Assembly (NCBI GenBank): GCA_024637095.1
Contig: JAGXFV010000006.1
Span: forward strand, 34,609-98,608
Length of the DNA: 64,000 bases
Reading direction: 5' to 3'
Source: Actinomycetes bacterium
GTDB taxonomy: Bacteria > Actinomycetota > Thermoleophilia > RBG-16-64-13
A program made the translations under genes and the position numbers. The notes under the pieces were generated by a model. It worked only from the letters and a program-made list of their open reading frames with translations, ran no database searches and was not told the origin of the DNA. Positions 3,242 to 64,000 of this stretch are shown piece by piece; the stretch's first letter is position 1; the number at the start of each line of letters is the position of its first letter.

Positions 3242-4006
3242 TCATTCCTTCTTGCCCGCCTGCCCCCCGTCGAGCACGTACTGGTCCACCAGATCACGCA
3301 CCGCCACGCGGCTAACGGCGTCGTTGCCCAGCGCAAAGACGTCAAGCCCGGCGAGGTCGTTTTCGAAGATGGCCGGGTCTTGGGGAATCGTCACCGCAGG
3401 CTCGAGCGAAGTGTGCTCGAGCAGCGGCTCCACATCCAAACCCTCCGGCACGCGGTTGACCACCACGTACCGTTTCTTGACCACGAGCCCCATCTCGTCG
3501 ATCAGTTCGTTGACCCGCTCTACGGTCCGCATTCCGCGCACGGTGGGGTCCGTGACCACGAACATCACATCGACGTCCCTGGTGGTGTGCCGGCTGAGGT
3601 GTTCGAGGCCACCCTCATTGTCCATCAGCACCCACTCGTACTCCTTGGCCAACGTCTTGATGTACTCCCTTAGGAGGTTGTTGGCGTAGCAGTAGCAGCC
3701 GGGGCCTTCCGGACGGCCCATAACCAACAGGTCGTAGCCCTTGGCTTCGGCCAGGGCCTCGTGCATCTTGTACTCGATCCAGCTCTGCTTATCCCAACCG
3801 GTCGGGATCTCGCGCGCGCCGACGAAGGCTTCCTCCCGCAGGCCACCAACAGTGGCCGGAGCCGTGACGCCCAAGACCTCGCCCAGGTTGGCGTTCGGGT
3901 CCGCGTCCACCACCAAGATCGGCGCCTCATCTCGCTCGACCAATTCACGAAGGATGAGACCCGTCAGGGTGGTCTTGCCCGTCCCCCCTTTGCCGGCCAC
4001 CGCCAC
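3242..4006 (-). CDS. cooC: CODH nickel-insertion accessory ATPase CooC/AcsF (MinD/ParA-like)
   Basis: MAVAGKGGTGKTTLTGLI deviant Walker A; 254 aa; CPGxYCYANN-like motif (GPGCYCYANN). Confidence 0.85.
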   Translation of the reverse strand: MAVAGKGGTGKTTLTGLILRELVERDEAPILVVDADPNANLGEVLGVTAPATVGGLREEAFVGAREIPTGWDKQSWIEYKMHEALAEAKGYDLLVMGRPEGPGCYCYANNLLREYIKTLAKEYEWVLMDNEGGLEHLSRHTTRDVDVMFVVTDPTVRGMRTVERVNELIDEMGLVVKKRYVVVNRVPEGLDVEPLLEHTSLEPAVTIPQDPAIFENDLAGLDVFALGNDAVSRVAVRDLVDQYVLDGGQAGKKE

Positions 4007-4020
4007 GGTTCGCGTTTCGC

Positions 4021-5979
4021 TCAGGATGCTCCTCCGTTCAGCTGATTGAGCACATTTTCCATGTTGGGGAAGTAGGTCATGTCCGTGTGGGGCAGGAACA
4101 TGGCCGCCATATAGTAGTCCATGAAGGTCTGGTTGTCGGAAAGCTCCACGTTGGTCACCGAGGTGGCAATCTGCTCCGCCGAGCGCAGCATGTCCTTGGA
4201 GAGTGACACCAGCCTCGCGCCAAGCAACGAGCCATTGCCCACGAAGGTGAATTTCTCGTAGTCGATCTCGGGGAAGAGGCCGATGGCCTGGGCCTGCTCG
4301 ATCCTCAGGTACTTGCCGAAACCCCCCGCGACCAAGACCTGCTCCAGGTCGCTCCAGTCGAGCGCCACGCTCTCCAACAAGGTCTGGATGCCCGCGTAGA
4401 TGGCCGCTTTGGCGCGCACCAGGTTGTCGATATCCGCCTCGGTGATGACGATGTCGTCTCCCGTGCCGGAGTACTCGGCCTCGACCAGGACGTACTCGGT
4501 GGCCCCCTCGGTCTCACGCACCCGCCAGGTGTCGAGCTCTGTGCGGAACTTGCCGTTCTGGGTGATCACCCCGGTTTCCAGGAGCTCAGCGACGGCGTCG
4601 ATTATCCCGGACCCACAGATACCCACCGGAGAGACCTCGCTTATGGTCAGGATCGTGGGGTCGTAGGTCACCGGATCGATGCGCACGCTTTCGACGGCAC
4701 CATCCGTCGCCCGCATGCCGTGCTTTATCCCGCCCCCCTCGAACGCCGGTCCGGCGGAACACGAGGTGGCTATCAGCCAGTCCCGGTTGCCCACCACGGC
4801 CTCGCCGTTGGTGCCGATGTCCATGTAAAGCGTGATCTTTTCGGTGCGAAACATGCCGGAACCCAGTATGCCGGAAACGATGTCTCCGCCGACGTAGCTG
4901 GAGACGCTGGGGAATGTGTAGAGGTGGACATGACGGCCAACCTCGATCCCGTCGCCCAGATTCGCCGCTCTGACCGGCGGAATGAAGTCCGCGGGAGGCA
5001 CGTATGGCGCCATCCGCAAATACTTGGGGTCGATACCGACCAACAGGCTGGTCATCGTGGTGTTGCCCGCAGCCACGAGATGGCTGATCTTCATGCGGTC
5101 GACGCCGGAGGAGGCCACCAGACTGTCGATGATGTCGTTTATGGTATTGACGATCGACTGCTGCAAACGCTCCCGGCCGCGGCTCTTTTGGGAGAAGACG
5201 ATTCGGCTGATGACATCCTCGCCGAAGCTGATCTGCCGGTTGTACTCGGAGGCCTGGGCCAGGCTCACCCCCTGCTTGAGGTCGAGCAACTGTCCCCAGA
5301 CGGTGGTGGTGCCGATGTCGAGGACCACCGAGTAATCCTCATTGCATACGGCACCCGGCTCGAGGTTGATCACCTTGTATCCGTAATTGGTGTCGACCAC
5401 CGTCGCCGTAACCGTCCAATTCTGCTCGCGCAGGATGTGCGGCATGTTGCGGATCCAGATGGAGTCCACCGATGCGTTCTCCAAGAGCTGCTCGTCCTTC
5501 AGCCCCTTCTTGAAGCGGGCAAGGTCGTTCATGTTGTCGAGCGTGGTGGGCTCGGGCAGCGTGAGACAGACCTTTTTCACCACCGGGTCGAGGGTCCAGT
5601 CCGCGACCAGTGATTCCAGCTCTGCGGGAGTGAGCAGCTTGCCCTTGCGGTCGCCCACCAACTCCCGATCGAGCACCGCAGCGTTACCCATGCGCGAAGT
5701 CTCGGGGACGAAGACCACGGCATCCGAGCGCAGGTAGGTCTGACAGGCCAGCCGAAGGCCGGATTGCCAGTCGGCGTCGTCGAGCTTCGAAGAACGCTCG
5801 GACAGAATCTCGCCGGACACCAGTTTGATTACGCACTTCCCGCAGGAACCGGCCCCGCCACAGGAGGCGTTGATGTGGATGCCGGAACGCATGGCCGCGC
5901 GCAGAATAGATTCATCCGGGGCGACGTCGCTGATAGCGACGTCGCCCGGCTGAAAGGTGAGGGTGTAGCGCTCGGTCAC
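4021..5979 (-). CDS. Reductive activator of corrinoid iron-sulfur protein (RACo-like; [2Fe-2S] ferredoxin + ASKHA ATPase domain)
   Basis: 652 aa. N-terminal plant-type ferredoxin motif ASCGGAGSCGKCVIKL...C, followed by an ASKHA-type domain (DIGTTTV...DIGTNGE...GICGSG). Confidence 0.75.
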   Translation of the reverse strand: MTERYTLTFQPGDVAISDVAPDESILRAAMRSGIHINASCGGAGSCGKCVIKLVSGEILSERSSKLDDADWQSGLRLACQTYLRSDAVVFVPETSRMGNAAVLDRELVGDRKGKLLTPAELESLVADWTLDPVVKKVCLTLPEPTTLDNMNDLARFKKGLKDEQLLENASVDSIWIRNMPHILREQNWTVTATVVDTNYGYKVINLEPGAVCNEDYSVVLDIGTTTVWGQLLDLKQGVSLAQASEYNRQISFGEDVISRIVFSQKSRGRERLQQSIVNTINDIIDSLVASSGVDRMKISHLVAAGNTTMTSLLVGIDPKYLRMAPYVPPADFIPPVRAANLGDGIEVGRHVHLYTFPSVSSYVGGDIVSGILGSGMFRTEKITLYMDIGTNGEAVVGNRDWLIATSCSAGPAFEGGGIKHGMRATDGAVESVRIDPVTYDPTILTISEVSPVGICGSGIIDAVAELLETGVITQNGKFRTELDTWRVRETEGATEYVLVEAEYSGTGDDIVITEADIDNLVRAKAAIYAGIQTLLESVALDWSDLEQVLVAGGFGKYLRIEQAQAIGLFPEIDYEKFTFVGNGSLLGARLVSLSKDMLRSAEQIATSVTNVELSDNQTFMDYYMAAMFLPHTDMTYFPNMENVLNQLNGGAS

Positions 5980-6016
5980 GCTACACCCTCGAACCGTTTT
6001 TTACCGGAGACAGCAC

Positions 6017-7690
6017 TTAGAACAGGCCGACGATCTTCCCGTCACTGGTCAGGTCGATCTTCTCGGCGGCCGGCTTCTTGGGCAGGCCGGGCATGGTCAT
6101 CATCTTGCCGCAAACGGGGATGATGAAGCCGGAGCCCGTGTTCAGCCGCACCTCACGCACGGTTAGACGCCAATCCCTCGGCCGGCCGAGCTTCGTCTTG
6201 TCGTCGGAGAGGGAGGCCTGAGTCTTGGCCATGCAGATGGGCAGGTCGCTGTAGCCCAGCTGATTGATCCGCTCAATAGACTCTTCCGCGTCGGAGGCGT
6301 AGTCCACGCCATCGGCGCCGTAGATCTTGGTTGCGATCGCCTCGATCTTCTCTTTTATGGGCTGCTTGACGTCGTAGAGGAACTTGAAGTCCGGCTTCTC
6401 CTCGGAGCACATGCGCACGATCTCCCGCGCCAGCTCCGCGCCGCCTTCGCCTCCGTTGGCCCACACGTCGGACAGCACGACCTTGGAGCCCATCTCCTTG
6501 ACCCGCTTGTCCAGGTGCGCCAACTCGGCATCGGTGTCCGTGGGGAACTTGTTGATGGCGACCACGACGGGTACGCCGAACAGTTGCATGTTCTCGACGT
6601 GTTTCTCGAGGTTCTCCAGGCCCTTGTCCAGCGCGTCGACGTTCTCTTCCTTCAGGTTCTCGAAGGGGACTCCGCCGTGCATCTTCAGCGCGCGGACGGT
6701 GGCCACGAGCACCACGGCGTCCGGGACCAGGCCGGCGTAACGACACTTGATGTCGAAGAATTTCTCCGCGCCCAGGTCGGCGGCGAAGCCTGCTTCGGTG
6801 ACCACGTAGTCGGCCAGCTTGAGAGCCAGCTTGGTCGCCTGCACCGAGTTACAGCCGTGGGCGATGTTCGCGAAGGGGCCGCCGTGCACGATGGCAGGAG
6901 TGTTCTCCAGAGTCTGCACCAGGTTGGGCATGAGGGCGTCCTTGAGCAGGACGGCCATGGAGCCCGAGGCCTTGATGTCGGCGGCGGTGACCGCCTTCCC
7001 GTCTTTGTCGAAGCCCAGGGTCACGCGGCCCAGCCGATCCTTGAGATCGTCCAGGTCGTTCGCCAGGCAGAGGATGGCCATGACCTCGGAGGCCACGGTG
7101 ATGTCGAAGCGGGTGTCGCGTTCGACGCCCTCGCCTTCCTTGCCGACAGTGACGGCACGCAGGGCGCGGTCGTTCAGGTCGACCACCCGCGGCCAAACGA
7201 TGTTCTCAGTGTCTATGTTGAGATCGTTGCCCTGGAAGAGGTGGTTGTCGAGAATGGCGGCGCAGAGGTTATGCGCCGTGGTGATCGCGTGCAGGTCGCC
7301 GGTGAAATGGAGGTTTATGTCCTCCATGGGGACCACCTGGGCGTAGCCACCGCCTGCGGCGCCGCCCTTGATCCCAAAAGAAGGACCCAGAGAAGGCTCG
7401 CGGAGAGTGGTGATGACCGATTCGCCGATCTTGGCCAGTCCCATCGAGAGACCGACGTTGGTGGTGGTTTTCCCCTCACCCGCTGGGGTCGGCGTAATCG
7501 CGGTGCAGAGAATCAGTTTACCGTCGGGATTGTCTTTGACCCGGTCCATGACGTCGAGGTGAATCTTCGCCTTGTATTTCCCATACAGATCGAGATCATC
7601 CGCCGAGAGGCCAAGCTGGTCAGCCACCTCGATGATCGGCTTAAGCTCAGCCTCTTGCGCGATTTCGATATCGCTCTTGTACTCCGCCAA
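6017..7690 (-). CDS. fhs: Formate--tetrahydrofolate ligase (formyl-THF synthetase)
   Basis: 557 aa, TTG start with [61 protein letters not shown] are canonical Fhs blocks. Confidence 0.95.
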
Positions 7691-7716
7691 TGCCCCTCCC
7701 CTTTACCCGTTTCAGC

Positions 7717-7744
7717 TGGCGCGACGATTCTAAGTGACAAAGAT
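7717..7744 (-). promoter_or_regulatory. Putative sigma70-type promoter upstream of fhs (TTGCGT-16-TAGAAT, minus strand)
   Basis: Read on the minus strand about 30-55 nt upstream of the fhs TTG start. The sequence itself shows no other signal. Confidence 0.35.
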
Positions 7745-7799
7745 GCTAACGCAAATAGGTAGGACCGTTCAAGCCCGGCCCCGCCCCGCTCCTCCTTCC

Positions 7800-9059
7800 C
7801 TAGGTGCCGTCCATCGAACCGGCACTCTCTCTGGCGGTGATCGCCTCGTTCATGATTTCCTTCAGCGAGCGCCCGGTCTCCTCCGCCACTCGGCGGCAGT
7901 CCTCGTACTCCGGTGAGCACGTAACCTCGACGCCCTTCCAGTAGCCTATCTTGACCGCGACCTCACCGCCCCTCACAGAAACACATTCCGTGCGACGCTC
8001 AAGTTCGTGCCGCCCACTCACCCGCCGTCGCAGGCCGAAAGTGGTCGACTCAACAAATATCATGTCTACGAGTGGGTCTTCGTCCTCGGGCCGGGCGATC
8101 ACGGTAAGTTCCACTCCGGGCCGGCCCTTCTTCATCAGCACCGGAGCCAGGTAGACGTCCAGAGCGCCCAGCGCGAGAAGGCGGCTCTGGAGGAAGCCGA
8201 GGACTTCGGGCGTGGCGTCATCGATGGCGGCCTCGAGGACCAGGCAGGACGAGTCGCCTCTAACCACTGTTTCTTCCCCGAATTCGATAGTGGTTTCAGC
8301 GGGCTTGCCCACGACCACGCGCAGCAGGTTCGGCCCGTGCTCGAGGACACGATGACCAGCCCCGTAACCCACGGCCCGCGGGGTCATGGGCGGCATCCCA
8401 CCCCAGGTGTCGGCCGCTTCGGTGAGAAGCAAGGCGCCCGTGGGCGTCGTCACCTCGGAACTCTCGGGCCCTGCCGAGACCGGCACACCCTCCAGGAGCG
8501 CCAGGGTCGCGGGGGCGGGAATCCCCACATCCCCATGCTCGGTCCGCAGTCTCCCTTGGCCCACGGGCACAGGCCCCACGGCCACGCGCTCGATCCCGAG
8601 TTCGTGAACCAGGCTGAAGAAGCCCACGACGTCGACCATGGTGTCGACCGCGCCCAGTTCGTGGAAGTGCACCTCGTTCACGGGGACGCCGTGCAAATCG
8701 GCCTCGACCCGGGCGAGGCGGTCCAGGGCCTTCAGCGAACGTTCCCGCACCTGCCCCGGCAGCGCGGCCGTCCGGATCAACGCCAAAACCTCTCGAGGTC
8801 CCCGGCGCGGCTGCCGGCCCCCATCCTCCACGGTCAGGCGGGTGCAGGCGAAGCCCTTCTCCACCCCACGCTCCGCGAGAACCCGAACACCCTGTAGGTT
8901 CAGGGCCGCGATGCTCCCGGTCAGCACCCGTTCCAGGTTTTGCTCAGGAAAGGCGTCGAGGAGGGCGGCCAAGAGCATGTCTCCTGCGGCGCCCGCCCAG
9001 AGGTCCACGTAGAGAAGCGTCCTCGGTTCGGACTTGGTCTGATCAGTCTGGTTTTCCAT
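7800..9059 (-). CDS. larC: LarC-family nickel insertion protein (DUF111; pyridinium-3,5-bisthiocarboxylate mononucleotide nickel chelatase-like)
   Basis: 419 aa. LYVDLWAGAAGDMLLAALLD, HFHELGAVDTMVDVVG, LKKGRPG-like MKKGRPGVEL blocks typical of LarC. Confidence 0.8.
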   Translation of the reverse strand: MENQTDQTKSEPRTLLYVDLWAGAAGDMLLAALLDAFPEQNLERVLTGSIAALNLQGVRVLAERGVEKGFACTRLTVEDGGRQPRRGPREVLALIRTAALPGQVRERSLKALDRLARVEADLHGVPVNEVHFHELGAVDTMVDVVGFFSLVHELGIERVAVGPVPVGQGRLRTEHGDVGIPAPATLALLEGVPVSAGPESSEVTTPTGALLLTEAADTWGGMPPMTPRAVGYGAGHRVLEHGPNLLRVVVGKPAETTIEFGEETVVRGDSSCLVLEAAIDDATPEVLGFLQSRLLALGALDVYLAPVLMKKGRPGVELTVIARPEDEDPLVDMIFVESTTFGLRRRVSGRHELERRTECVSVRGGEVAVKIGYWKGVEVTCSPEYEDCRRVAEETGRSLKEIMNEAITARESAGSMDGT

Positions 9060-23046: not shown

Positions 23047-23634
23047 CTACCCTTTGGCCCGCTCATACTGCTTGGACACGAAGTCCCAGTTGATCACGCT
23101 GAAGAACGCATCGATGTACTTGGGGCGCGCGTTACGATAGTCGATGTAGTAGGCGTGCTCCCAAACGTCCATCGTGAGCAGCGCCGTCTGCCCGTGGGCC
23201 AACGGCAGGTCGGCGTTCATGGTGTCGGTCACCTTGAGCTTGCCGCCATCCATCACCAGCCATGCCCAACCCGAGCCAAAGCGCCCCGCGCCTGCCTGGC
23301 TAAACTCCTCCTTGAAGTTGGCGAACGAGCCGAACTCGCTCTTGACAGCCTGCGCCAGCTCGCCGGAGGGCTCGCCACCACCGTCGGGAGACATGCAGTT
23401 CCAGTAGAAGGTGTGATTCCAGACCTGAGCGACGTTGTTGAAGAGACCGCCTTTCGCCGACTTGATGATCTCCTCCAGGTCCTTGCCGGCGTTCTCCGTG
23501 CCTTTGATCATCGAGTTGGTCTTCTCGACGTAGGCTTTGTGGTGCTTGTCGTGGTGAAACTCCAGGGTTTCAGCGCTGATGTGCGGCTCCAGGGCGTCCT
23601 TGGCGTAGGGCAGTTCCGGAAGCTCAAAGGCCAT
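23047..23634 (-). CDS. sodA: Fe/Mn superoxide dismutase
   Basis: ATG at 23634 with AGGAGGG RBS. MAFELPELPYAKDALEPHISAETLEFHHDKHH...DVWEHAYY. The N-terminal 170 codons of the track ORF are rejected. Confidence 0.95.
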   Translation of the reverse strand: MAFELPELPYAKDALEPHISAETLEFHHDKHHKAYVEKTNSMIKGTENAGKDLEEIIKSAKGGLFNNVAQVWNHTFYWNCMSPDGGGEPSGELAQAVKSEFGSFANFKEEFSQAGAGRFGSGWAWLVMDGGKLKVTDTMNADLPLAHGQTALLTMDVWEHAYYIDYRNARPKYIDAFFSVINWDFVSKQYERAKG

Positions 23635-23829
23635 CGATTTCCCTCCTCTGGATTGGATGCCTGACCGGGCAATCGCCGAAAGGTCTACCCCCGGTCCTTC
23701 GCCCGCCAAACGGAAGGGTGCGCCCCTCCCCGGCCGATCTCTCCGCGCAGGGCAATTTTGAGATGCCGGTTTTGCGGGGCATTCGAGACAGGAAGAACCA
23801 CCAGAGAGCACCACATCGGAGCACAGGCC

Positions 23830-24354
23830 ATGAATCTGCAAGGCAAGCGCATAGCAATTCTCGCGGAACGGCAGTACGAGGATCTCGAGCTCTGGTATCC
23901 CAAGCTCCGGCTGGAGGAAGCCCGGGCCGAGGTGGTGATCGCCGGAACGGGTGAGCCTGAATATGCCTCGAAACATGGCTACCCTGTGCGGGTCGACGCC
24001 AACGTGGGCGATCTGGATCCCGCCGACTTTGCCGGTGTGGTGGTACCCGGCGGTTGGGCCCCCGACTACCTGCGCCGGCATGAACCGGTCACGGCGTTCG
24101 TCGCCGCGATGGACGCGGCGGGCAAACTGGTAGCCGCCATCTGTCACGGCGGCAGCGTCCTGGTGTCCGCGGGGATTCTACGCGGGCGCCAATTGACGTC
24201 TGTCACGGCGATACGCGACGACCTCATCAATGCCGGAGCCACCTGGATCGATGCCGAAACGGTGGTGGACCGTAACCTCGTTAGCGCCCGCCGCCCTGAC
24301 GATCTACCGGCCTTCCTGCCCGCCATAATCGCGGTTCTCGCCGAGCAGCCGTAG
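23830..24354 (+). CDS. DJ-1/PfpI family protein (class I glutamine amidotransferase-like; protease I)
   Basis: ATG 23830. KRIAILAERQYEDLELWYP, AICHGG nucleophile elbow. Confidence 0.85.
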   Translation: MNLQGKRIAILAERQYEDLELWYPKLRLEEARAEVVIAGTGEPEYASKHGYPVRVDANVGDLDPADFAGVVVPGGWAPDYLRRHEPVTAFVAAMDAAGKLVAAICHGGSVLVSAGILRGRQLTSVTAIRDDLINAGATWIDAETVVDRNLVSARRPDDLPAFLPAIIAVLAEQP

Positions 24355-57848: not shown

Positions 57849-57939
57849 CCGGGCGAAGAGACGCGCGGACGGGATGAAGTCGCCCTACTGACGGGTATGA
57901 GTCTGCCCAGTTGGAGGGCGGCACCTGATCGAGTGGCAA

Positions 57940-58368
57940 TTGAACCCAAGGAGGCATGAAATGGAACGGGAATTCCCCACAGCCGATGTCGAGCTGACCG
58001 TGCTCTTGGTGGTTTCCGACGTCGAACGAGCCAAGCGCTTCTACCGCGACGTTCTCGGCGCCTCACTCTACCGCGAGTACGCGGGCACCAGCGTGGTTCT
58101 CAGCTTCCAGGGGACCTGGCTGCTACTGGTCACCGGGGGCGGACCCACTGACGACAAGCCGAACGTCACCTTCGCCCCGCCCGCCGACCCCCACCGAGTC
58201 AGTAACCAACTCACCTTGCGGGTCCCCGACTGCCACGACGCGTACGAGGCCCTGCGGGCCCGCGGCGCCGAGTTCCTCACGCCTCCCGTGACTCAGGGAA
58301 GCGAGACCAGAGCCTTCTTCCGCGACCCCGATGGGCATCTGCTCGAGATCAGCTCGATCGCGGCGTAA
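57940..58368 (+). CDS. VOC-family protein (glyoxalase/bleomycin-resistance/dioxygenase fold)
   Basis: 142 aa. RAKRFYRDVLG...DPDGHLLEI. The start is possibly at the downstream MEREF. Confidence 0.7.
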   Translation: MNPRRHEMEREFPTADVELTVLLVVSDVERAKRFYRDVLGASLYREYAGTSVVLSFQGTWLLLVTGGGPTDDKPNVTFAPPADPHRVSNQLTLRVPDCHDAYEALRARGAEFLTPPVTQGSETRAFFRDPDGHLLEISSIAA

Positions 58369-58371
58369 GCG

Positions 58372-58398
58372 GCGCGTCGGGCGCGTCGGGCGCGTCGG
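58372..58398. repeat. 9-bp tandem repeat (gcgcgtcgg x3) immediately after VOC stop codon
   Basis: Direct reading after taa at 58366-58368. Confidence 0.85.
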
Positions 58399-58502
58399 GC
58401 GGCGGGAAGACGACCCGGCCGGGGCCTGTTCCACTCACGGCGATTTCCTGACGCCTCGACGCCGAGGTAAGGCCGCCGGCCGGATTTGGGAGGAGTGCGC
58501 GC

Positions 58503-59660
58503 CTACGACGAAGCCAGGGGCTGTGCGCGCTTAGCTTCCGCCGCCGCCTCAGCCTCCACCGCTTCCGCCTCCGCGTGCAGCTGCACTTGGGCAAAGTACA
58601 CCGCCAGGGGACGGTAGGCCATATGCGCCCACTTGCCGAAGGGCACCTCGAGCACCAACATTGGTACGACCGCCATCAGGTGAACGACGTAGGTCACGTT
58701 GGCGGCCGCGTCCAGGCCGGAGCGGTGAAGAACGTGCTGGAGCACGCCGGTTACGGCTACGATCAGCAGTAGGATCAGGAAGATCCAATCCGACTCGTGG
58801 GAGTGGGTGTGCTGGGCGGAGTCTCGGCGCAACCGGCCGCGAAGGTTCCAGACCACAGCCCCAATCAGGCCCGCCGAGGCCAGATAGCCGAAGACGTGGA
58901 CGCGCCAGTCGATCTCCGGCCCGCTCGCCAGTTCACCCAGGAAGAACATGACGAGCACCAGCATGGTCACGTAGCTGAGCATCAGGGCCAGGTGCACCGC
59001 CCAGGGACGCTTACGGTCACACTCCCTGTACTTGGGCTGAGCGAAGAAGTGAACGGGCAGCGCGGGAAGGCTCGCCAGGTAGGAGCTCAAGGAAGCTTTG
59101 ACTCCACCGGCTTTGGTGAAAAAACGCCACATGCGCCCCGCGTTGACGCCCAACAGGACTACCAGCAATCCAGCCATGGCCCAGTCGAACACGTGGATCT
59201 TGGAACTGGGCAAGAAGGCATTGGGACCGTCATAGCTGTTGATGCTGCCCTGAGACATACCGAACAGGGTGAAGCCGACTCCCGTCGCGATCGCAGCCAG
59301 GATGATGATGAACAACTCCCACTTCCACGAGCGATAGAAGAGCCGCGAGATGCCGGTGAAGTCATACTTAGCCGTTAGCCAGCGCCGCATGCTCATCATG
59401 GTCTCGGCCGGTTCCGCTCCTTTGGGACACTGCTCCGAGCACTCTCCACAGTAGTAGCAGAGCCAGGGTTCCAGCGAGCCCTGAAGCTTGCTCTCGGCGC
59501 CCAGCTGAAGGGCGTGCATGGGCCGTCGTGGCAGCACGAAAGGGGCCTCGGAGTGAACGCAAACCGCGGAGCAGTTGCCACAGTTGAAGCACTTGCTAAC
59601 GTCCTCGGCTCCGTATGCCAGGAGTTCATCCACAAGGCCCGGATTGATTTTTGTCGCCAT
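58503..59660 (-). CDS. QmoC/HdrE-like membrane subunit: N-terminal 2x[4Fe-4S] ferredoxin (HdrC-like) fused to multi-helix His-rich cytochrome b-like domain
   Basis: 385 aa. CFNCGNCSAVC and CYYCGECSEQCP motifs. About 5-6 hydrophobic helices with conserved His (HVFDW, HLALM, HVLH, HLMAV). Confidence 0.6.
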   Translation of the reverse strand: MATKINPGLVDELLAYGAEDVSKCFNCGNCSAVCVHSEAPFVLPRRPMHALQLGAESKLQGSLEPWLCYYCGECSEQCPKGAEPAETMMSMRRWLTAKYDFTGISRLFYRSWKWELFIIILAAIATGVGFTLFGMSQGSINSYDGPNAFLPSSKIHVFDWAMAGLLVVLLGVNAGRMWRFFTKAGGVKASLSSYLASLPALPVHFFAQPKYRECDRKRPWAVHLALMLSYVTMLVLVMFFLGELASGPEIDWRVHVFGYLASAGLIGAVVWNLRGRLRRDSAQHTHSHESDWIFLILLLIVAVTGVLQHVLHRSGLDAAANVTYVVHLMAVVPMLVLEVPFGKWAHMAYRPLAVYFAQVQLHAEAEAVEAEAAAEAKRAQPLASS

Positions 59661-59703
59661 CGTTCTCCTCGATACAGGCTTTACCGACGCAGAAAGACGC
59701 CGT

Positions 59704-60189
59704 CTAGATGAACAGGTTCACGTTGGCTTCGTCGGCCTCGCCCAGGTAGGCGGCCACCCCGGCGTACTCCAGGCCGTCCATGAGTTCTTCCTCGCAGAAG
59801 CCGAGGATGTCCATGGAGAGGGTGCAGGCGACGAACTTCACGCCCTGCTCCCTGGCGGCCTCGACCAGTTCATCGAGGGACATGGCGTTCTGCTGCTTCA
59901 TGACCTTCTTCATGAGCGGCGCGCCCGCGCCGGCAAAGTTCATCTTGGAAAGGCCAAGACGCCGGGTGCCCTTGGGCATCATGCGGCCGAACATCGACTG
60001 CAGAGTGCTCTTCTTGTGGCCGTTGGTCGACACCTTCCCGTCTTTGCGCAGCACGTTCAACCCCCAGAAGGTGAAGAACATCGTGACCTGATCACCCATG
60101 GCGGCTGCCCCGTTGGCGATGATGAAGGCCGCCATCACCCGGTCGAAGTCGCCGCTGAACAAAATGATGGTCTTCTTGCTGGTATCCAC
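59704..60189 (-). CDS. DsrE/DsrF-like family protein (peroxiredoxin-fold sulfur-relay-like)
   Basis: 161 aa. IILFSGDFDRVMAAFIIANGAAAMG...FVACTLSMDILG resembles the DsrE/DsrF/DrsE fold family. Confidence 0.5.
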   Translation of the reverse strand: MDTSKKTIILFSGDFDRVMAAFIIANGAAAMGDQVTMFFTFWGLNVLRKDGKVSTNGHKKSTLQSMFGRMMPKGTRRLGLSKMNFAGAGAPLMKKVMKQQNAMSLDELVEAAREQGVKFVACTLSMDILGFCEEELMDGLEYAGVAAYLGEADEANVNLFI

Positions 60190-60217
60190 TATCGTCCTCC
60201 TCCGCTGCCGGTGCCCA

Positions 60218-60514
60218 TTACTGCTCCCGGGGAACGGTCTGGTATTGGAAGTAGCCTTCGTCGGTCGCCTCTTTGATCTCGGCGACGTAACCGTACTTGC
60301 GCATCCCCATCACCCAGAAGACCACCTCGTGCGTGGGTTGGGCGATGGCCGTGGCAATCTCGGGGATGGTGAGGGGGCCTTCGGCAAGCGCGTCGAGGAT
60401 CCGCGACCTCATGAAGTGCTCGTCTCGGATGATCTCGCGCACGTCGCGATTCGTCCTCGGCTCCCGCGCGTCTTGCGCCGACCGGTTCCGGTTGGTGGCG
60501 TTGGTGTCGTTCAT
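60218..60514 (-). CDS. Small winged-helix DNA-binding protein (98 aa)
   Basis: ATG 60514 overlaps the hdrA stop (ATGA). RILDALAEGPLTIPEIATAIAQPTHEVVFWVMGMRKYGYV looks HTH/wHTH-like. Confidence 0.5.
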   Translation of the reverse strand: MNDTNATNRNRSAQDAREPRTNRDVREIIRDEHFMRSRILDALAEGPLTIPEIATAIAQPTHEVVFWVMGMRKYGYVAEIKEATDEGYFQYQTVPREQ

Positions 60515-62250
60515 GCGCAACTCACCCCCAGCATGCCGTCGATCATCGACCTGATTTGCGCGTCGGTATATCCCTGCAGATCGATGGCGTTCGCGGGGCA
60601 AACGGGGACGCAGCCCCCGCAACCCTTGCAGGCGGTCTTCGCAATCACGGCTACCTCCTTGCCCGCATGCTGATCGAGAGAAATCGCATCGTAGGGACAG
60701 GTGTCTTGACACGCGCCGCACCACTCACAGACGTCAAGATCAACGGTGGCGACCAAGGGGTCCAGTTCGGCGGTGCCCCGCTTCAATATGGCCGCACTTT
60801 GGGTGACCGCCGCGAGGCCCGACTGCACGCTCTCTGACAAGTTGCGCGGTGCCTGACAGCACCCGGCGATGTAGACGCCGTCCACCACCGTCTCCACCGG
60901 CCGCAGCTTGGGGTGGATCTCGTTGAAGAAGCCACTCTGTCCCACGGGCAGCTTGAGGGCTTTGGTAAGCCCCTCGTTCTCGCGCGGGACCATGCCGGTC
61001 ATCAGAACCACGAGGTCCACCTCGAGCTCGAACTCCTCCCCTTCGGACAGCAGGTCTCGGGCAGTAACGGTCACGCGGCCGCTCGCCTGATCTCTCTCGA
61101 TCACGGGCGGTTCTTGGTCGGGATACTTGATGTACGCCGAGCCCTTCTCAAGCGCTTCGGAGTACAACAGTTCGAAGGTGCCGTAGGTGCGCATGTCGCG
61201 GTAGAAGTGGTACTGGTGCACCTTGCCCGGCAGAGCCTCTACCTGCAGGGCAGCGTGCGCCCCGGCATTGCAGCAGTAACGCGAGCAGTAGGTGTTGGCC
61301 CCTTCCTCATACTCCGGCTGCCGGCTGCCCACACAGTAGACGTAGGCCAGGGTCTTGACCGGCCGGCCTTTGTACTTCAGGGGACCGTCGGCGGCCTCTA
61401 CCATCTGCTTGAACTCAGCGATCGTCACCACGCCGTCTTGACCGAAGCCGAACTCGCCCTCGTCGGGCTGGTAGGTGTCGAAGCCGGTGGTCACGACGAT
61501 GGAGCCCACGTCCACCTGGATGGTCTCCAACTGCTCGCCTTGCACGGCCAGCGTCGCTTGGTAGTTGCCAAAGCTGCCGCTCTTGGCGATAAGTTCGGCG
61601 TTGGTGAAGACCGTGATGCCGGGGTGGGCGCGCACGGCGCTCTCGAGGCCGGCCACCAACTCGCCGCCGTTTCGTCCGTGCGGATACATCTCCTTGAAGC
61701 CGGAGACCCAGCCTCCCAGCCGCTCTTTCTTCTCAACGAGGAACACGGAAAGCCCGACCTCGGCCAACCCCAGGGCGGCCCGAAGACCGGCAATACCGCC
61801 GCCAACCACGAGGCTCTTCGGCGTGGTCTCGACCACGATGGACTCGAGCGGGTCGGTCAGCCGGGTGCGGTTGACGCCGGCGCGTACCAGGCGAAGCGCC
61901 TTCTCGGTGGCCCCCGCGTGGTCGTCGGTATGCGTCCAGGAGCACTGTTCGCGCACGTTCACCTGCGTGTACTGGAAGGGATTCATGCCGGCACGGCGGG
62001 CAACGTCACGGAAGGTGTAGGTGTGCAGTTTGGGCGAGCAGGAAGCCACGACCAGTCCGTCCAGACCCCGCTCCTGGGCGTCGGTGATGATCTCCTGCTG
62101 CGTCGAATCGGAGCAGGTGAACATGGCGGTCCTTGCGACCTCGACTCCGGGCTCCTTGGCTATCGCCTCAACCACACGGTCCACGTCCACGTAGTCGCCG
62201 ATATTGCCGCCGCACTGGCAGACGTAGACCCCGATCTTGCGGGCGCTCAT
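60511..62250 (-). CDS. hdrA: Heterodisulfide reductase subunit A-like flavoprotein (HdrA/QmoB-type)
   Basis: 579 aa. N-domain KIGVYVCQCGGNIGDYVD...ASCSPKLH...REQCSWTH (as in methanogen HdrA), FAD site LVVGGGIAGLRAALGLAE, CVGSRQ...YCSRYCC cluster motif. C-terminal 2x[4Fe-4S] CEWCGACQDTCP / CKGCGGCVPVCP. Confidence 0.8.
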   Translation of the reverse strand: MSARKIGVYVCQCGGNIGDYVDVDRVVEAIAKEPGVEVARTAMFTCSDSTQQEIITDAQERGLDGLVVASCSPKLHTYTFRDVARRAGMNPFQYTQVNVREQCSWTHTDDHAGATEKALRLVRAGVNRTRLTDPLESIVVETTPKSLVVGGGIAGLRAALGLAEVGLSVFLVEKKERLGGWVSGFKEMYPHGRNGGELVAGLESAVRAHPGITVFTNAELIAKSGSFGNYQATLAVQGEQLETIQVDVGSIVVTTGFDTYQPDEGEFGFGQDGVVTIAEFKQMVEAADGPLKYKGRPVKTLAYVYCVGSRQPEYEEGANTYCSRYCCNAGAHAALQVEALPGKVHQYHFYRDMRTYGTFELLYSEALEKGSAYIKYPDQEPPVIERDQASGRVTVTARDLLSEGEEFELEVDLVVLMTGMVPRENEGLTKALKLPVGQSGFFNEIHPKLRPVETVVDGVYIAGCCQAPRNLSESVQSGLAAVTQSAAILKRGTAELDPLVATVDLDVCEWCGACQDTCPYDAISLDQHAGKEVAVIAKTACKGCGGCVPVCPANAIDLQGYTDAQIRSMIDGMLGVSCA

Positions 62251-64000
62251 ACCGTGACCTTCGCTTTCGGTTCTGCCATCGCTTTGTGCCTCTCGACGTG
62301 GGCAGCGGCCTGAGCCACGGCCGCTCCTGCGTGGAGGATGGAATCGGGGATGTCCTTGACGCCCGATGCGGCCCCGGCCACGAAAACCCCGGGCAAGTTG
62401 GTGCGGCCGGGATCGAGATCCTCGTCCGCCTCGCCGACGTAGAAGTAGTCGTCCAGGGCCAGAGCGCCGTCCTCGAACAGGCCGGCGACTTCCAAGTTGG
62501 GCTGTACGCCCACGGCAAGCACCACCATGTCGTACTCGGCCTCGACCACCCCGCCGTCACCCTCCACGTCCTCGTAGCGGACGATGAGGTTGCCGTCCTC
62601 CTTCTCGGTGATCTTGGCCACCCTGCCCTTGATGAACATGGCGCCCATGTCCTTGGCCTGCTGGTAGAACTCATCGTAGCCCTTGCCCACAGCGCGTACG
62701 TCCATGTAGTGGACGGTGACATCGGCCAGCGGCAGGGCGCCCATGACCAACTGGTTGTGCTTCACCGAGTACATGCAACAGATGCGCGAGCAAAGGGGAT
62801 TGTCGACGGTGTCATCTCGGGAGCCGGTGCACATGATGTAGGCAATGTTGTCGGGAACCTTGCCGTCTCCCGGGCGGAGCACAGAGTTGAAGGGCCGCGT
62901 CGGGGCCAGCAGCCGGTCCATCTGCATGCCGGTGATCACGTTCGCGTACTTCCCGTAGCCGTACTCCGGCTTGGCATCGGCCGGAAAGAGCTTGAAACCG
63001 GTGGCCAGCACGACCGAGGCGGTGTCCACTTCGATCTCCTCGGGACGCATGGCGAGATCAACGGCGTCGGCCGGGCAGGCATCCACGCAGGCGTGACATT
63101 CCGAGCAGACCCCGCAGTCGAGGCAACGGGAGGTGGCCTCCAAGGCCTCCGCTTCGGTAAGGGTGGTTTCGGTTTCCGCGAAGTCCACGGGAGCCGCGTT
63201 CATGACCGCGTGGGATTCCAGCGGTTCGCGCCGGTCATAGACATCTTGGCGGCGCAGCACCTCGAGCTTGTCGACCCGAGGAAGGTTGTCCTCGAAGCCG
63301 GCAGAATCCAGTGCAGCCCCCTCTAGGAAGCGGTCGATCATGAAGGCCGCCCTACGGCCCTGGCCAACTGCCTGGGTGATCATGCTGGGGCCGGTGACTG
63401 CGTCTCCGGCGGCAAAGATTTCGGGTCTGGCGGTTTGGAGCGTCGCCGAGTCCACTTTGAGCGTACGGTTAGGGTTAGTTTGCAGAGCGAACGCTTCGGT
63501 GTCCGCCCCCATCCCCGCAGCCACGATCACCAGGTCACACTCCAACGTCTTGCGCATCTTTTCGTCGTATTCGGGGGCGAAGCAGCCGTCGGGATCGAAC
63601 ACGCAGGTACAGCGCTTGAGCCCCGCCGTCTGCACCCGCTCGCCTCCGTCGAAGTGGTCGATGCCCCAACCGTCGTGCAGGGTGATGCCTTCGGCCTTGG
63701 CCTCCTCGACCTCGAAGTCGTGGGCAGGCATCTCGTCACAGCTTTCCAGACTTACCTGATCTACGGAGGCCGCGCCCAGCCGGCGAGCAGTCCGGGCCGC
63801 GTCGATGGCGACGTTGCCGCCCCCCACCACGAGCACCTTCTTGCCCTCCATCTCTACGGGCTCACCCAACTTCACCGCCCGCAGGAACTCGAGAGCGGTG
63901 GTGACCCCCTGCTTGTCTTCTCCAAGAACCCGCAGGCGAACGGGGCGGTGGGTGCCGGTGGCAAGCAGCACCGCGTTCCACCCGTCCTCGAGCAACCGGC
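62247..64000 (-). CDS. HdrL-like fusion (GltD/NfnB-like NAD(P)H-binding module + ferredoxin + HdrA-like module), C-terminal 582 aa; N-terminus beyond window end
   Basis: KKVLVVGGGNVAIDAARTARRLGA and IFAAGD (NAD(P)H Rossmann of the GltD/SudA family). Then CLDCGVCSECHACVDACP, CTGSRD...CSRICC and HdrA C-half blocks. 4-nt overlap with hdrA. Confidence 0.6.
   Translation of the reverse strand, partial: RLLEDGWNAVLLATGTHRPVRLRVLGEDKQGVTTALEFLRAVKLGEPVEMEGKKVLVVGGGNVAIDAARTARRLGAASVDQVSLESCDEMPAHDFEVEEAKAEGITLHDGWGIDHFDGGERVQTAGLKRCTCVFDPDGCFAPEYDEKMRKTLECDLVIVAAGMGADTEAFALQTNPNRTLKVDSATLQTARPEIFAAGDAVTGPSMITQAVGQGRRAAFMIDRFLEGAALDSAGFEDNLPRVDKLEVLRRQDVYDRREPLESHAVMNAAPVDFAETETTLTEAEALEATSRCLDCGVCSECHACVDACPADAVDLAMRPEEIEVDTASVVLATGFKLFPADAKPEYGYGKYANVITGMQMDRLLAPTRPFNSVLRPGDGKVPDNIAYIMCTGSRDDTVDNPLCSRICCMYSVKHNQLVMGALPLADVTVHYMDVRAVGKGYDEFYQQAKDMGAMFIKGRVAKITEKEDGNLIVRYEDVEGDGGVVEAEYDMVVLAVGVQPNLEVAGLFEDGALALDDYFYVGEADEDLDPGRTNLPGVFVAGAASGVKDIPDSILHAGAAVAQAAAHVERHKAMAEPKAKVTV

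Follow-up and report, generated by a model that had tools for sequence, protein, structure and literature searches.

In this study we describe a seven-gene operon, tusA-mvhD'-hdrL-hdrA-wHTH-dsrE2-qmoC, located at the end of a 64,000-nucleotide stretch of DNA (hereafter the window) from an Actinomycetes bacterium of the Thermoleophilia (contig JAGXFV010000006.1, positions 34,609 to 98,608). The operon is proposed to encode a membrane-anchored complex of the Qmo/Hdr type, in which three ports would link menaquinone, nicotinamide adenine dinucleotide phosphate (NADP(H)), and sulfur or thiols bound to the carrier proteins TusA and DsrE2. We put the probability of this reading at about 0.5. It is built on a pair of complementary HdrA-type flavoproteins, a QmoC-type membrane anchor, and a gene context that recurs in several phyla.

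All of this genome that was examined comes from the window and a 22-kb Logan contig, L001, which shares 7188 bases with the window at zero mismatches and runs on beyond base 64000. An earlier note, made from the window, had described a cluster of five co-directional minus-strand genes. All five open reading frames were found, tightly packed, but the cluster extends to seven genes: the window holds the 3' five-sevenths of the operon, and tusA and mvhD' sit past base 64000. On the extended contig the N-terminus of HdrL was recovered to give 905 amino acids. The operon consists of the following genes, positions past 64000 being given as window-equivalents.

58503..59660, minus strand: qmoC, QmoC-like membrane anchor, 385 amino acids; match to the NCBIfam qmoC profile
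59704..60189, minus strand: dsrE2, DsrE2-like sulfur-carrier protein, 161 amino acids; GTG start; PF13686
60218..60514, minus strand: wHTH, small winged helix-turn-helix protein, 98 amino acids with a conserved core of ~78; winged helix predicted by AlphaFold2 (AF2)
60511..62250, minus strand: hdrA, 'B-type' HdrA subunit, 579 amino acids; matches methanogen HdrA structures
62247..64000 (window end), minus strand: hdrL, 'A-type' subunit, C-terminal 583 of 905 amino acids
L001 7287-10004 (gene runs to 64964): full hdrL, 905 amino acids
L001 6853-7290 (64961-65398): mvhD', MvhD-like gene of the FlpD/MvhD fold, 145 amino acids
L001 6602-6853 (65398-65649): tusA, 83 amino acids; CPGP motif

The genes are close-packed or overlapping. 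The overlap is 4 nucleotides for both mvhD'/hdrL and hdrL/hdrA, and 1 nucleotide for tusA/mvhD', by which tusA is translationally coupled to mvhD'; the ATGA in which the hdrA stop overlaps the wHTH start, noticed earlier, was read in the sequence, and a ribosome-binding site, GGAGGAGGA, stands just ahead of the dsrE2 GTG start. Housekeeping genes flank the operon, with rsfS, guaA, and pfkB on one side and, on the other, genes for a glyoxalase and for a PAS protein together with uvrA, and the same flanks are present in a 90%-identical metagenome-assembled genome (MAG) from the Soudan mine (L083). Near the operon, in the window and on L001, none of hdrB, hdrC, aprAB, sat, metF, and metV was found; the absence of a CCG-domain HdrB/HdrC subunit noted for the window thus extends to the whole contig, and of the neighbours that the earlier note proposed to seek beyond base 64000, mvhD and tusA were found whereas hdrB/hdrC, metF/metV, and aprAB did not appear. 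Neither LbpA nor HdrB was detected at the locus in L001 and L083. A promoter and terminator scan of 57900-60300 gave no match, such a scan being uninformative for a high-GC actinobacterium.

Subunits encoded by the operon

Profile and phmmer matches placed the products among HdrA, QmoC, and DsrE proteins rather than unrelated flavoproteins. By phmmer, the 579-amino-acid HdrA matched 8rvu_a and 5odc_A with an E value of 1e-110, and its alignment with methanogen HdrA consists of two blocks that skip chain residues ~243-319, namely the inserted ferredoxin domain. The N-terminal Cys-cluster domain (Cys11/13/46/71), the flavin adenine dinucleotide (FAD) domain with its CxGSR..C..CC motif, and the C-terminal 2x[4Fe-4S] ferredoxin domain are all kept, and the NCBIfam HdrA2 score was 471 bits, under the cutoff of 1100. 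At the position where methanogen HdrA has FPTLDCxxC (Cys197), this protein has YPHGRNGGE ('emyphgrnggel' aligned against 'ktfptldcsmci'). The earlier note had taken it for a full HdrA with the methanogen-type N-terminal Cys cluster; the Cys domain is there, but the protein is not a full HdrA because the inserted ferredoxin domain and the Cys197 motif are missing.

HdrL has the opposite set of domains. It contains the HdrA FAD core with Cys197 (FPTLDCASC) and lacks both the N-terminal and the C-terminal domain. HdrA-type matches cover residues 5-150 and 615-903, and matches of the NfnB/GltD type lie between them at ~153-626 (9bov, 8oh5, 9n5u 'NfnA', 4ylf, and 5jca NfnI). This block of ~460 amino acids resembles the Nfn large subunits of Thermotoga and Pyrococcus as well as GltD, with Fer4_20 and Pyr_redox_2 detected by Pfam. 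It is predicted to be an NfnB/GltD-type NADPH-FAD-2x[4Fe-4S] module splitting the inserted ferredoxin domain of HdrL; both parts of the GltD-HdrA protein described earlier are thus present, though not as an end-to-end fusion. As judged from these alignments, HdrL (A) and the 579-amino-acid HdrA (B) make up a heterodimeric HdrA with complementary domain losses. The same A/B split was observed in the relatives from Chloroflexota and Bacteroidota and also in hydrogenase-linked sister clusters. Complementarity between the N-terminal domain and Cys197 is the mark of heterodimeric HdrA according to Chadwick et al. (PMC9012536), who described an NfnB insertion in HdrA for ANME-1; the name HdrL was given in Desulfobacterium autotrophicum (PMC2702500).

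The QmoC-like protein covered positions 6-359 of the 360-position NCBIfam qmoC model (E 2e-49), with a score of 168.7 bits, under the equivalog cutoff of 300. Pfam Fer4 families matched residues 20-82, and two CxxCxxCxxxC motifs were identified (Cys24/27/30/34 and Cys68/71/74/78). Five strong hydrophobic segments were detected, and the AF2 model contains six helices (112-137, 152-185, 217-244, 252-277, 290-313, and 317-341), its mean confidence (predicted local distance difference test, pLDDT) being 62, with values under 50 for the N-terminal domain and ~75-93 for the membrane part. Among 13 homologues of 62-91% identity, H156, H223, H288, H312, H327, H346, and C214 are invariant. These observations agree with the QmoC/HdrE-like subunit, with a His-rich membrane cytochrome b, as first read from the window. 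QmoC is predicted to be an HdrC-type 2x[4Fe-4S] ferredoxin domain fused to a six-helix, His-rich membrane domain of the cytochrome b type. With the iron-sulfur (FeS) domain in the cytoplasm, H156, H312, and H327 would lie near the outer face and H223, H288, and H346 near the inner face of the modelled membrane domain, a distribution compatible with two bis-His haems. By sequence search of the PDB no solved Qmo complex was found, HdrC alone matching the N-terminus of QmoC.

Two putative sulfur carriers are encoded together with these subunits. The DsrE-like protein recognised earlier matched PF13686 (DrsE_2) with 210 bits and the NCBIfam DsrE2 model with 93.7 bits, under the cutoff of 210, and is therefore assigned by profile to the DrsE_2 family but not to the curated DsrE2 equivalog. 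Among solved structures, 3pnx, a 'putative sulfurtransferase DsrE', is its best relative (E 1e-33); Cys122 aligned to the conserved Cys of 3pnx and 2qs7, and no strong hydrophobic segment was detected. TusA matched PF01206 with 69 bits against a cutoff of 28.6, and its motif GTSCPGP, carrying the Cys-Pro-x-Pro active site, aligned to 1pav and E. coli TusA. Solved MvhD proteins and those of the hydrogenase-linked sister clusters have 6 conserved Cys, only 2 of which are retained in the MvhD-like protein. Of the canonical set (FCCNWC, VMC, GGC, and DCHY), the cysteines of FCCNWC and GGC have been lost; three conserved Cys specific to the TusA-linked type, C85 and the CxxC pair C116-x2-C119, have been gained.

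The small wHTH protein was modelled by AF2 (pLDDT 84.5) as a minimal winged helix of three helices and a two-strand wing. Foldseek returned generic winged helices of the ArsR, MarR, and Z-alpha kinds only, with a best E of 9e-4. The Pfam scores stayed under cutoff (HTH_5, 17.4 against 22; PF0610-like_N, 20.2 against 33), and no match to NCBIfam was obtained. The protein has no Cys and is acidic, the median isoelectric point of its core being 5.4, and 26 positions are invariant in 35 homologues. Helix three is hydrophobic (EVVFWVMGMRKYG), and dimerisation helices are lacking. The family is small and discrete, represented by 351 representative clusters (E<=1e-3) among 1.84 billion proteins. Because the fold is acidic and Cys-free with a hydrophobic helix, and because a separate ArsR gene is present in many loci, the wHTH protein is more likely a subunit or adaptor than an operon repressor. 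A relation to DsrD was considered and is not supported, as no Pfam DsrD match was obtained at E<0.01 and DsrD was not among the top 50 Foldseek matches. Longer representatives suggestive of fusions to neighbouring subunits turned out to be frameshifted or garbled gene calls.

Relatives and sister operons

The QmoC family is large. Of the candidates scored, 2159 matched at E<=1e-10, and species-representative genomes contain at least 585 loci. Gene context was surveyed for the 80 best QmoC loci, and a metagenome scan with the wHTH alignment supplied 48 loci. Twelve of the 80 share the TusA-type operon; they belong to Actinomycetota/Thermoleophilia, Gaiellales, Anaerolineales, and a deltaproteobacterial MAG, and a second copy was found at a Bacteroidales locus. 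Across phyla the core [arsR]-tusA-mvhD'-A-B-wHTH-qmoC recurs together with a DsrE-type gene, carriers being Actinomycetota (L083, L006, L028, and L030), Ardenticatenaceae and Anaerolineales (L087 and L079-L082), Bacteroidota (L088), and the deltaproteobacterial MAG (L080). The wHTH gene was found in all 13 genome loci of this type (type 1), for which soils, peat, and sediments are the main sources. The carriers found are without exception MAGs or metagenome contigs, and some long-read contigs, such as L091, are frameshifted.

Gene order varies around this core. With genes named by Pfam label, it reads arsR-tusA-mvhD-A(450)-B(676)-wHTH-qmoC-DrsE_2 in Ardenticatenaceae and DrsE_2-tusA-mvhD-A(447)-B(649)-wHTH-qmoC in Bacteroidota, and in both the wHTH gene overlaps its neighbours by 1-4 nucleotides. 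The A subunit has no NfnB insertion in Chloroflexota and Bacteroidota, and TusA, DsrE, and wHTH are kept there.

In the 48 metagenome loci, tusA-mvhD'-hdrL lies upstream wherever the sequence reaches, and hdrA always precedes the wHTH gene where it reaches far enough. Two variants were distinguished downstream. The order wHTH-dsrE2-qmoC of the window is present in 11 loci, with 6 more cut after dsrE2; in 26 loci the order is wHTH-hdrC-hdrB-dsrE2. The second variant in full is tusA-mvhD-hdrL-hdrA-wHTH-hdrC-hdrB-dsrE2, with proteins 73-86% identical, and its HdrC is a di-cluster ferredoxin of 104-128 amino acids while its HdrB (~324 amino acids) has a single CCG domain (Pfam E 2e-12). Examples of the HdrC+HdrB variant are as follows.

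L091, 2867-10438
L099, 10234-11510
L126, 10191-11544
~24 further metagenome loci

Since the same tusA-to-dsrE2 set ends in either QmoC or HdrC/HdrB, the terminal module is judged from gene order to be exchangeable and the sulfur carriers constant. In one Thermoleophilia MAG the two variants stand side by side.

The other 68 of the 80 QmoC loci are mostly of the order A'-qmoC-B'-mvhD, followed by genes for both subunits, small and large, of a [NiFe] hydrogenase of the Mvh type and by hyp genes. MvhG and MvhA were detected in 45 of these 68 loci, whereas the 12 loci of the TusA type gave no such pair. As read from gene content, TusA, wHTH, and DsrE occupy the place that the Mvh hydrogenase has in the sister clusters. 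DsrE and wHTH, regarded earlier as embedded in the cluster, are indeed part of it, but hardly in a side role, as the carriers and the wHTH protein accompany the HdrA pair in several phyla and replace the hydrogenase.

The hydrogenase sister operon is exemplified by L085/L086 (8180-15768), which encodes an HdrA-like A' (603 amino acids), QmoC, an HdrA-like B' (574 amino acids), MvhD, MvhG, MvhA, and Hyp proteins. Its 45 loci are among L007-L078 and come from Acidobacteriota, Bacteroidota, Anaeromyxobacter, and Thermoleophilia as well as other groups. The encoded proteins have the look of an HdrA complex driven by H2 and linked to quinone, which may be an H2:menaquinone/ferredoxin bifurcating hydrogenase, and for this operon no paper describing it was found in the literature searched. 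A third order of the QmoC family, A-B-mvhD-qmoC, was seen at L019, L040, L046, and L053 (MAGs of Anaeromyxobacteraceae, Polyangia, and Myxococcales), with no detectable wHTH or TusA and, in two of them, an HdrL-like gene ~5 kb downstream.

In many relatives' loci a separate ArsR-family gene stands upstream of tusA, for which the closest solved structure is the sulfide sensor SqrR (E 1e-10). A persulfide-sensing ArsR at the locus of the present genome was rejected, no match being obtained by tblastn in the window, L001, or L003. At L001 6254-6330, upstream of tusA and at the position where many relatives carry intact ArsR genes, an in-frame stretch, RLEVIWALSQAELCVCDV, resembles the ArsR metal-site motif ELCVCDL, with unrelated sequence after it, and may represent the remnant of a lost ArsR gene. 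Extra genes of the DsrE type and for TusA recur in the flanks of the relatives, and TauE was seen once.

Electron paths and rival explanations

In the solved Hdr-Mvh complex the flavin bifurcates electrons into two branches (PMC9012536). One runs from the thioredoxin-reductase-domain cluster through HdrC to HdrB; the other runs from the N-terminal cluster, to which Cys197 of the partner contributes a ligand, via the inserted ferredoxin domain and on to ferredoxin (PMC9012536). By analogy with this architecture, three ports are proposed around one HdrA flavin of the present complex. The high-potential port would lead from the FeS cluster of the thioredoxin-reductase domain through the QmoC clusters and b haems to menaquinone, which would be the high-potential partner with QmoC in place of HdrC/HdrB. 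The low-potential port would lead from the N-terminal cluster through the inserted ferredoxin domain and the NfnB-like module to NADP(H); the latter is put in the place of free ferredoxin because the NfnB-like module sits where the low-potential branch ends. The mid-potential port would connect the C-terminal ferredoxin domain of HdrA with the MvhD-like subunit. TusA, DsrE2, and wHTH are the candidates for this third port because the hydrogenase fills it in the sister clusters and no other partner is encoded; judged by gene context, its partner may be the chemistry of sulfur or thiols bound to the proteins TusA and DsrE2, with the wHTH protein as a small structural or adaptor subunit.

In the forward direction, electrons of NADPH and menaquinol would be confurcated onto a persulfide or disulfide on TusA/DsrE2, in analogy to the confurcation model for QmoABC and APS (adenosine 5'-phosphosulfate) reductase by Ramos et al. 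(PMC3333476). In reverse, oxidation of sulfide or a thiol would drive the joint reduction of menaquinone and NADP+. The sequence cannot tell the direction, and a reversible scheme is proposed. The thiol/disulfide or sulfide/persulfide couple lies at ~-150 to -270 mV, menaquinone at -75 mV, and NADP(H) at -320 mV. A sulfur couple of a potential between those of menaquinone and NADP(H) fits the requirement of a bi- or confurcating flavin.

Several points weigh against this three-port scheme. Its main weakness is that the QmoC variant has no recognisable catalytic site for a persulfide or disulfide, a CCG domain being absent and the wHTH protein Cys-free. TusA and DsrE2 persist with or without HdrB and hence are not simply substrates of HdrB. 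The ports are assigned by homology to the methanogen enzyme, and haem binding by QmoC is predicted from its conserved His and family membership only; when the low-confidence AF2 model of QmoC was searched against the PDB by fold, the best E was >=0.16, with NarI among the weak matches only. The similarity of the relatives' ArsR proteins to SqrR is modest and their Cys positions differ, and no SqrR-like regulator was matched by tblastn in the window, L001, or L003. Finally, every named carrier is an uncultured organism represented by a MAG.

Among the rival explanations, the likeliest one, to which we give roughly one chance in five, is that NAD(P)H drives bifurcation to menaquinone and ferredoxin in the manner of Fix/EtfABCX, or the reverse, providing a Wood-Ljungdahl anaerobe with low-potential electrons, and that TusA, DsrE2, and wHTH are only regulators or maturation factors. 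The NADPH module, the HdrA flavins, and the quinone anchor are all there, Wood-Ljungdahl genes are present within the window, and the energetics are feasible from what is generally known of EtfABCX-type bifurcation. However, the NfnB module fills the ferredoxin branch of the solved enzyme and the MvhD-side port is left unexplained; the same applies to the NAD(P)H/ferredoxin-to-quinone module proposed in the earlier note, of which the Qmo-like architecture holds but not the ferredoxin scheme, as its MvhD-side port lacks a partner. Moreover, the variants without the NfnB insertion in Chloroflexota and Bacteroidota retain TusA, DsrE, and wHTH, which stand in for the hydrogenase of the sister clusters, and no linkage to Wood-Ljungdahl genes was found at any locus examined.

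It is unlikely that the system serves the detoxification or assimilation of reactive sulfur (persulfide or polysulfide) with NADPH, TusA and DsrE2 collecting sulfane sulfur that the complex disposes of or mobilises, and the quinone link being incidental, with neither energy coupling nor bifurcation. Such a role would agree with the SqrR/BigR-like ArsR regulators upstream in relatives, with TauE, DUF302, and extra DsrE genes near one Bacteroidota locus, and with the relation of NfnB-type proteins to Pyrococcus NfnI, reportedly first described as an NADPH 'sulfide dehydrogenase'. The apparatus of two flavoproteins, MvhD, and a di-haem subunit nevertheless exceeds the needs of a detoxifying reductase, the carriers are kept in variants without the NfnB module, and the regulator is missing at the locus of this genome.

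That the wHTH protein is merely the transcription factor of the operon, with TusA and DsrE2 as hitch-hikers lacking any functional tie, appears improbable. Its fold is ArsR/MarR-like and some sources label its homologues MarR or 'predicted transcriptional regulator'; yet the gene lies inside the operon between two subunit genes, with the 1-4-nucleotide overlaps recurring in distant phyla, the acidic core and the hydrophobic third helix without dimerisation helices speak against that role, many loci have their own ArsR regulator, and the synteny of tusA, dsrE2, and wHTH holds across phyla and across the QmoC/HdrCB swap. Finally, an ordinary dissimilatory QmoABC of a sulfate reducer or sulfur oxidiser, passing electrons from menaquinol to APS reductase or the other way, is very improbable: JGI annotations name the homologues QmoC, the QmoC architecture matches over its full length, and 'type II' Qmo closer to HdrA is known from some true sulfate reducers (PMC10504309), but the ~10 kb on each side of the operon contain neither aprAB nor sat in L001 or in the 90%-identical L083, the QmoC score is far under the equivalog cutoff, MvhD is separate and divergent instead of being a domain of QmoB, and the operon has its own NADPH module and sulfur carriers.

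The proposed three-port complex resembles canonical ('type I') QmoABC, known from green sulfur bacteria and sulfate reducers such as Desulfovibrio, Archaeoglobus, and Chlorobaculum, in combining two HdrA-related flavoproteins with QmoC, which unites an HdrC-like di-cluster domain and an HdrE-like di-haem domain. QmoABC exchanges electrons with menaquinone, a link proposed here by analogy. A confurcation model that assumes a co-donor of low potential has been put forward for QmoABC; in sulfate reducers this proposed co-donor is not encoded with qmo (PMC3333476). QmoC is swapped for HdrCB or HdrD in some lineages, as in Gram-positive sulfate reducers with either qmoC or hdrCB (PMC10504309). Unlike canonical qmoABC, which is linked to aprBA/sat, the present operon has no such linkage within ~10 kb, as the earlier note had expected of a non-canonical system; the MvhD-like domain fused to QmoB is here a separate, divergent gene upstream of hdrL; the flavoproteins are nearer to methanogen HdrA and have a built-in NADPH module of the NfnB type; and the operon includes genes for TusA, DsrE2, and wHTH. 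Type II QmoAB(C), nearer to HdrA, is found in organisms with or without Dsr/Apr, including Ammonifex degensii, 'Ca. Vulcanisaeta moutnovskia', and some true sulfate reducers, and its role was explicitly left open (PMC10504309). The present proteins probably belong in this phylogenetic neighbourhood. The main text of PMC10504309 mentions no association with TusA, DsrE2, wHTH, or an NfnB insertion.

Features in common with HdrABC-MvhAGD (5odc, 8rvu, and 7bkb) are the HdrA fold and its cluster motifs, a subunit of the MvhD fold, and a ferredoxin like HdrC. That complex contains a homodimer of four-domain HdrA, a CCG-domain HdrB with non-cubane clusters, and a hydrogenase, whereas the present locus has an A/B heterodimer and neither of the latter two; the MvhD Cys pattern is rewired, and the high-potential acceptor here would by analogy be a quinone. 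HdrL1-3 of D. autotrophicum (PMC2702500) and HdrA9-11 of ANME-1 (PMC9012536) likewise carry an NfnB/GltD-like module inside the inserted ferredoxin domain with mvhD adjoining, but these published proteins are encoded beside dsrABC, fdh, or hdrBC and regarded as soluble, as opposed to the QmoC anchor and sulfur carriers found here. In the sulfur-oxidising sHdr system of Hyphomicrobium, Aquifex, and Metallosphaera (PMC11094781; PMC4175335), an Hdr-type complex is similarly tied by its genes to TusA, DsrE-family proteins, and ArsR-type regulators. Its sHdrH, a small protein of unassigned function between sHdrA and sHdrC2B2, parallels by position the order hdrA-wHTH-hdrC-hdrB of the sister variant. 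In contrast to the sHdr core shdrC1B1AHC2B2 with LbpA, there is no HdrB1/B2 pair and no lipoate-binding protein here, and the HdrA is of another type (heterodimer, MvhD, and NfnB). The hydrogenase-linked sister clusters have the same QmoC family (47-65% identity), A/B complementarity, and MvhD, but their MvhD retains the canonical Cys and is accompanied by the MvhAG [NiFe] hydrogenase, and TusA, wHTH, DsrE, and the NfnB insertion are all missing.

The building blocks have thus been described already, namely QmoC, heterodimeric HdrA, the HdrL/NfnB insertion, MvhD, TusA/DsrE near Hdr-like complexes, and the QmoC/HdrCB swap. An operon that joins them with TusA, a protein of the DsrE2 type, a wHTH of its own, and an MvhD with rewired Cys was not found described in the literature searched, most subscription journals lying outside it, and within the same scope neither was its alternation with hydrogenase-linked and HdrCB-terminated sisters. 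The earlier supposition of an undescribed complex would apply to the operon and not to its parts. We tentatively suggest, as a doubtful extension at about the level of one chance in four, that TusA/DsrE-linked HdrA heterodimers ending in QmoC or HdrCB might form an unrecognised, widespread bifurcating class with carrier-bound persulfide or thiol as the mid-potential substrate, and with MvhD' and wHTH as a new sulfur-handling interface.

Neighbouring genes and meaning

Several genes outside the operon deserve mention. Near its start the window contains the tail of a Wood-Ljungdahl gene set with carbon monoxide dehydrogenase/acetyl-CoA synthase (CODH-ACS), extending over 3242-9059.

3242-4006: CooC-like ATPase
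4021-5979: corrinoid activator RACo
6017-7690: formate-tetrahydrofolate ligase (fhs)
7800-9059: LarC-type nickel-insertion protein

The statement that the organism carries a Wood-Ljungdahl operon is partly borne out by the ligase, RACo, and the CooC-like ATPase at 3-8 kb. The suggested link of the Qmo/Hdr-type operon to Wood-Ljungdahl energy coupling found no support, as these genes are ~50 kb away and the operon type is present in Bacteroidota, Chloroflexota, and soil Thermoleophilia within unrelated neighbourhoods. A MetFV-Hdr tie to the pathway was likewise rejected for this locus, no metF or metV adjoining the operon in any locus examined.

Divergent from and upstream of tusA, L001 4865-6073 (window-equivalent ~66178-67386) encodes a 310-amino-acid MtrA-like protein with a DUF4346 pterin-binding domain and an 81-amino-acid open reading frame without family match. 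Both look like a recent insertion because they are missing at that position in the 90%-identical L083. The MtrA-like/DUF4346 protein is possibly of interest given the Wood-Ljungdahl genes of the organism. Near TusA-type operons of different phyla, genes for Nitro_FeMo-Co (NifX/NifB-C-like), CGGC-domain, and DUF5320 proteins recur with those for Mrp/ParA-type ATPases and a radical-SAM protein, and may form a metal- or FeS-trafficking set. The genes of this recurring set are located as follows.

L088, 1-2402
L089, 13221-16306
L091, 1-2159
L030 and L006, flanks

Elsewhere in the window, the region 34-44 kb carries housekeeping genes for glycolysis, whiA, and uvrC. The 366-amino-acid open reading frame at 23047-24147 has a Fe/Mn superoxide dismutase domain at residues 174-359 only; its N-terminal ~170 amino acids gave no family match, and the true start may be further downstream.

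How Qmo-type complexes couple the oxidation of quinol to a reaction in the cytoplasm has been a question ever since they were discovered. In the present operon all candidate partners, namely an NADPH module, a quinone anchor, two sulfur carriers, and a dedicated small protein, are encoded together. The sister operons, in which QmoC is exchanged for HdrCB or the carriers for a hydrogenase, provide a natural control, so that the coupling becomes testable with a defined set of proteins. If the complex handles sulfane sulfur, it would be an uncounted link between sulfur, NADPH, and the respiratory chain in organisms not deemed sulfur metabolisers. If the proposal of a bifurcating class is true, cryptic sulfur cycling would be tied to the NADP(H)/ferredoxin and quinone pools of non-sulfate-reducing bacteria in soil, peat, and sediment.

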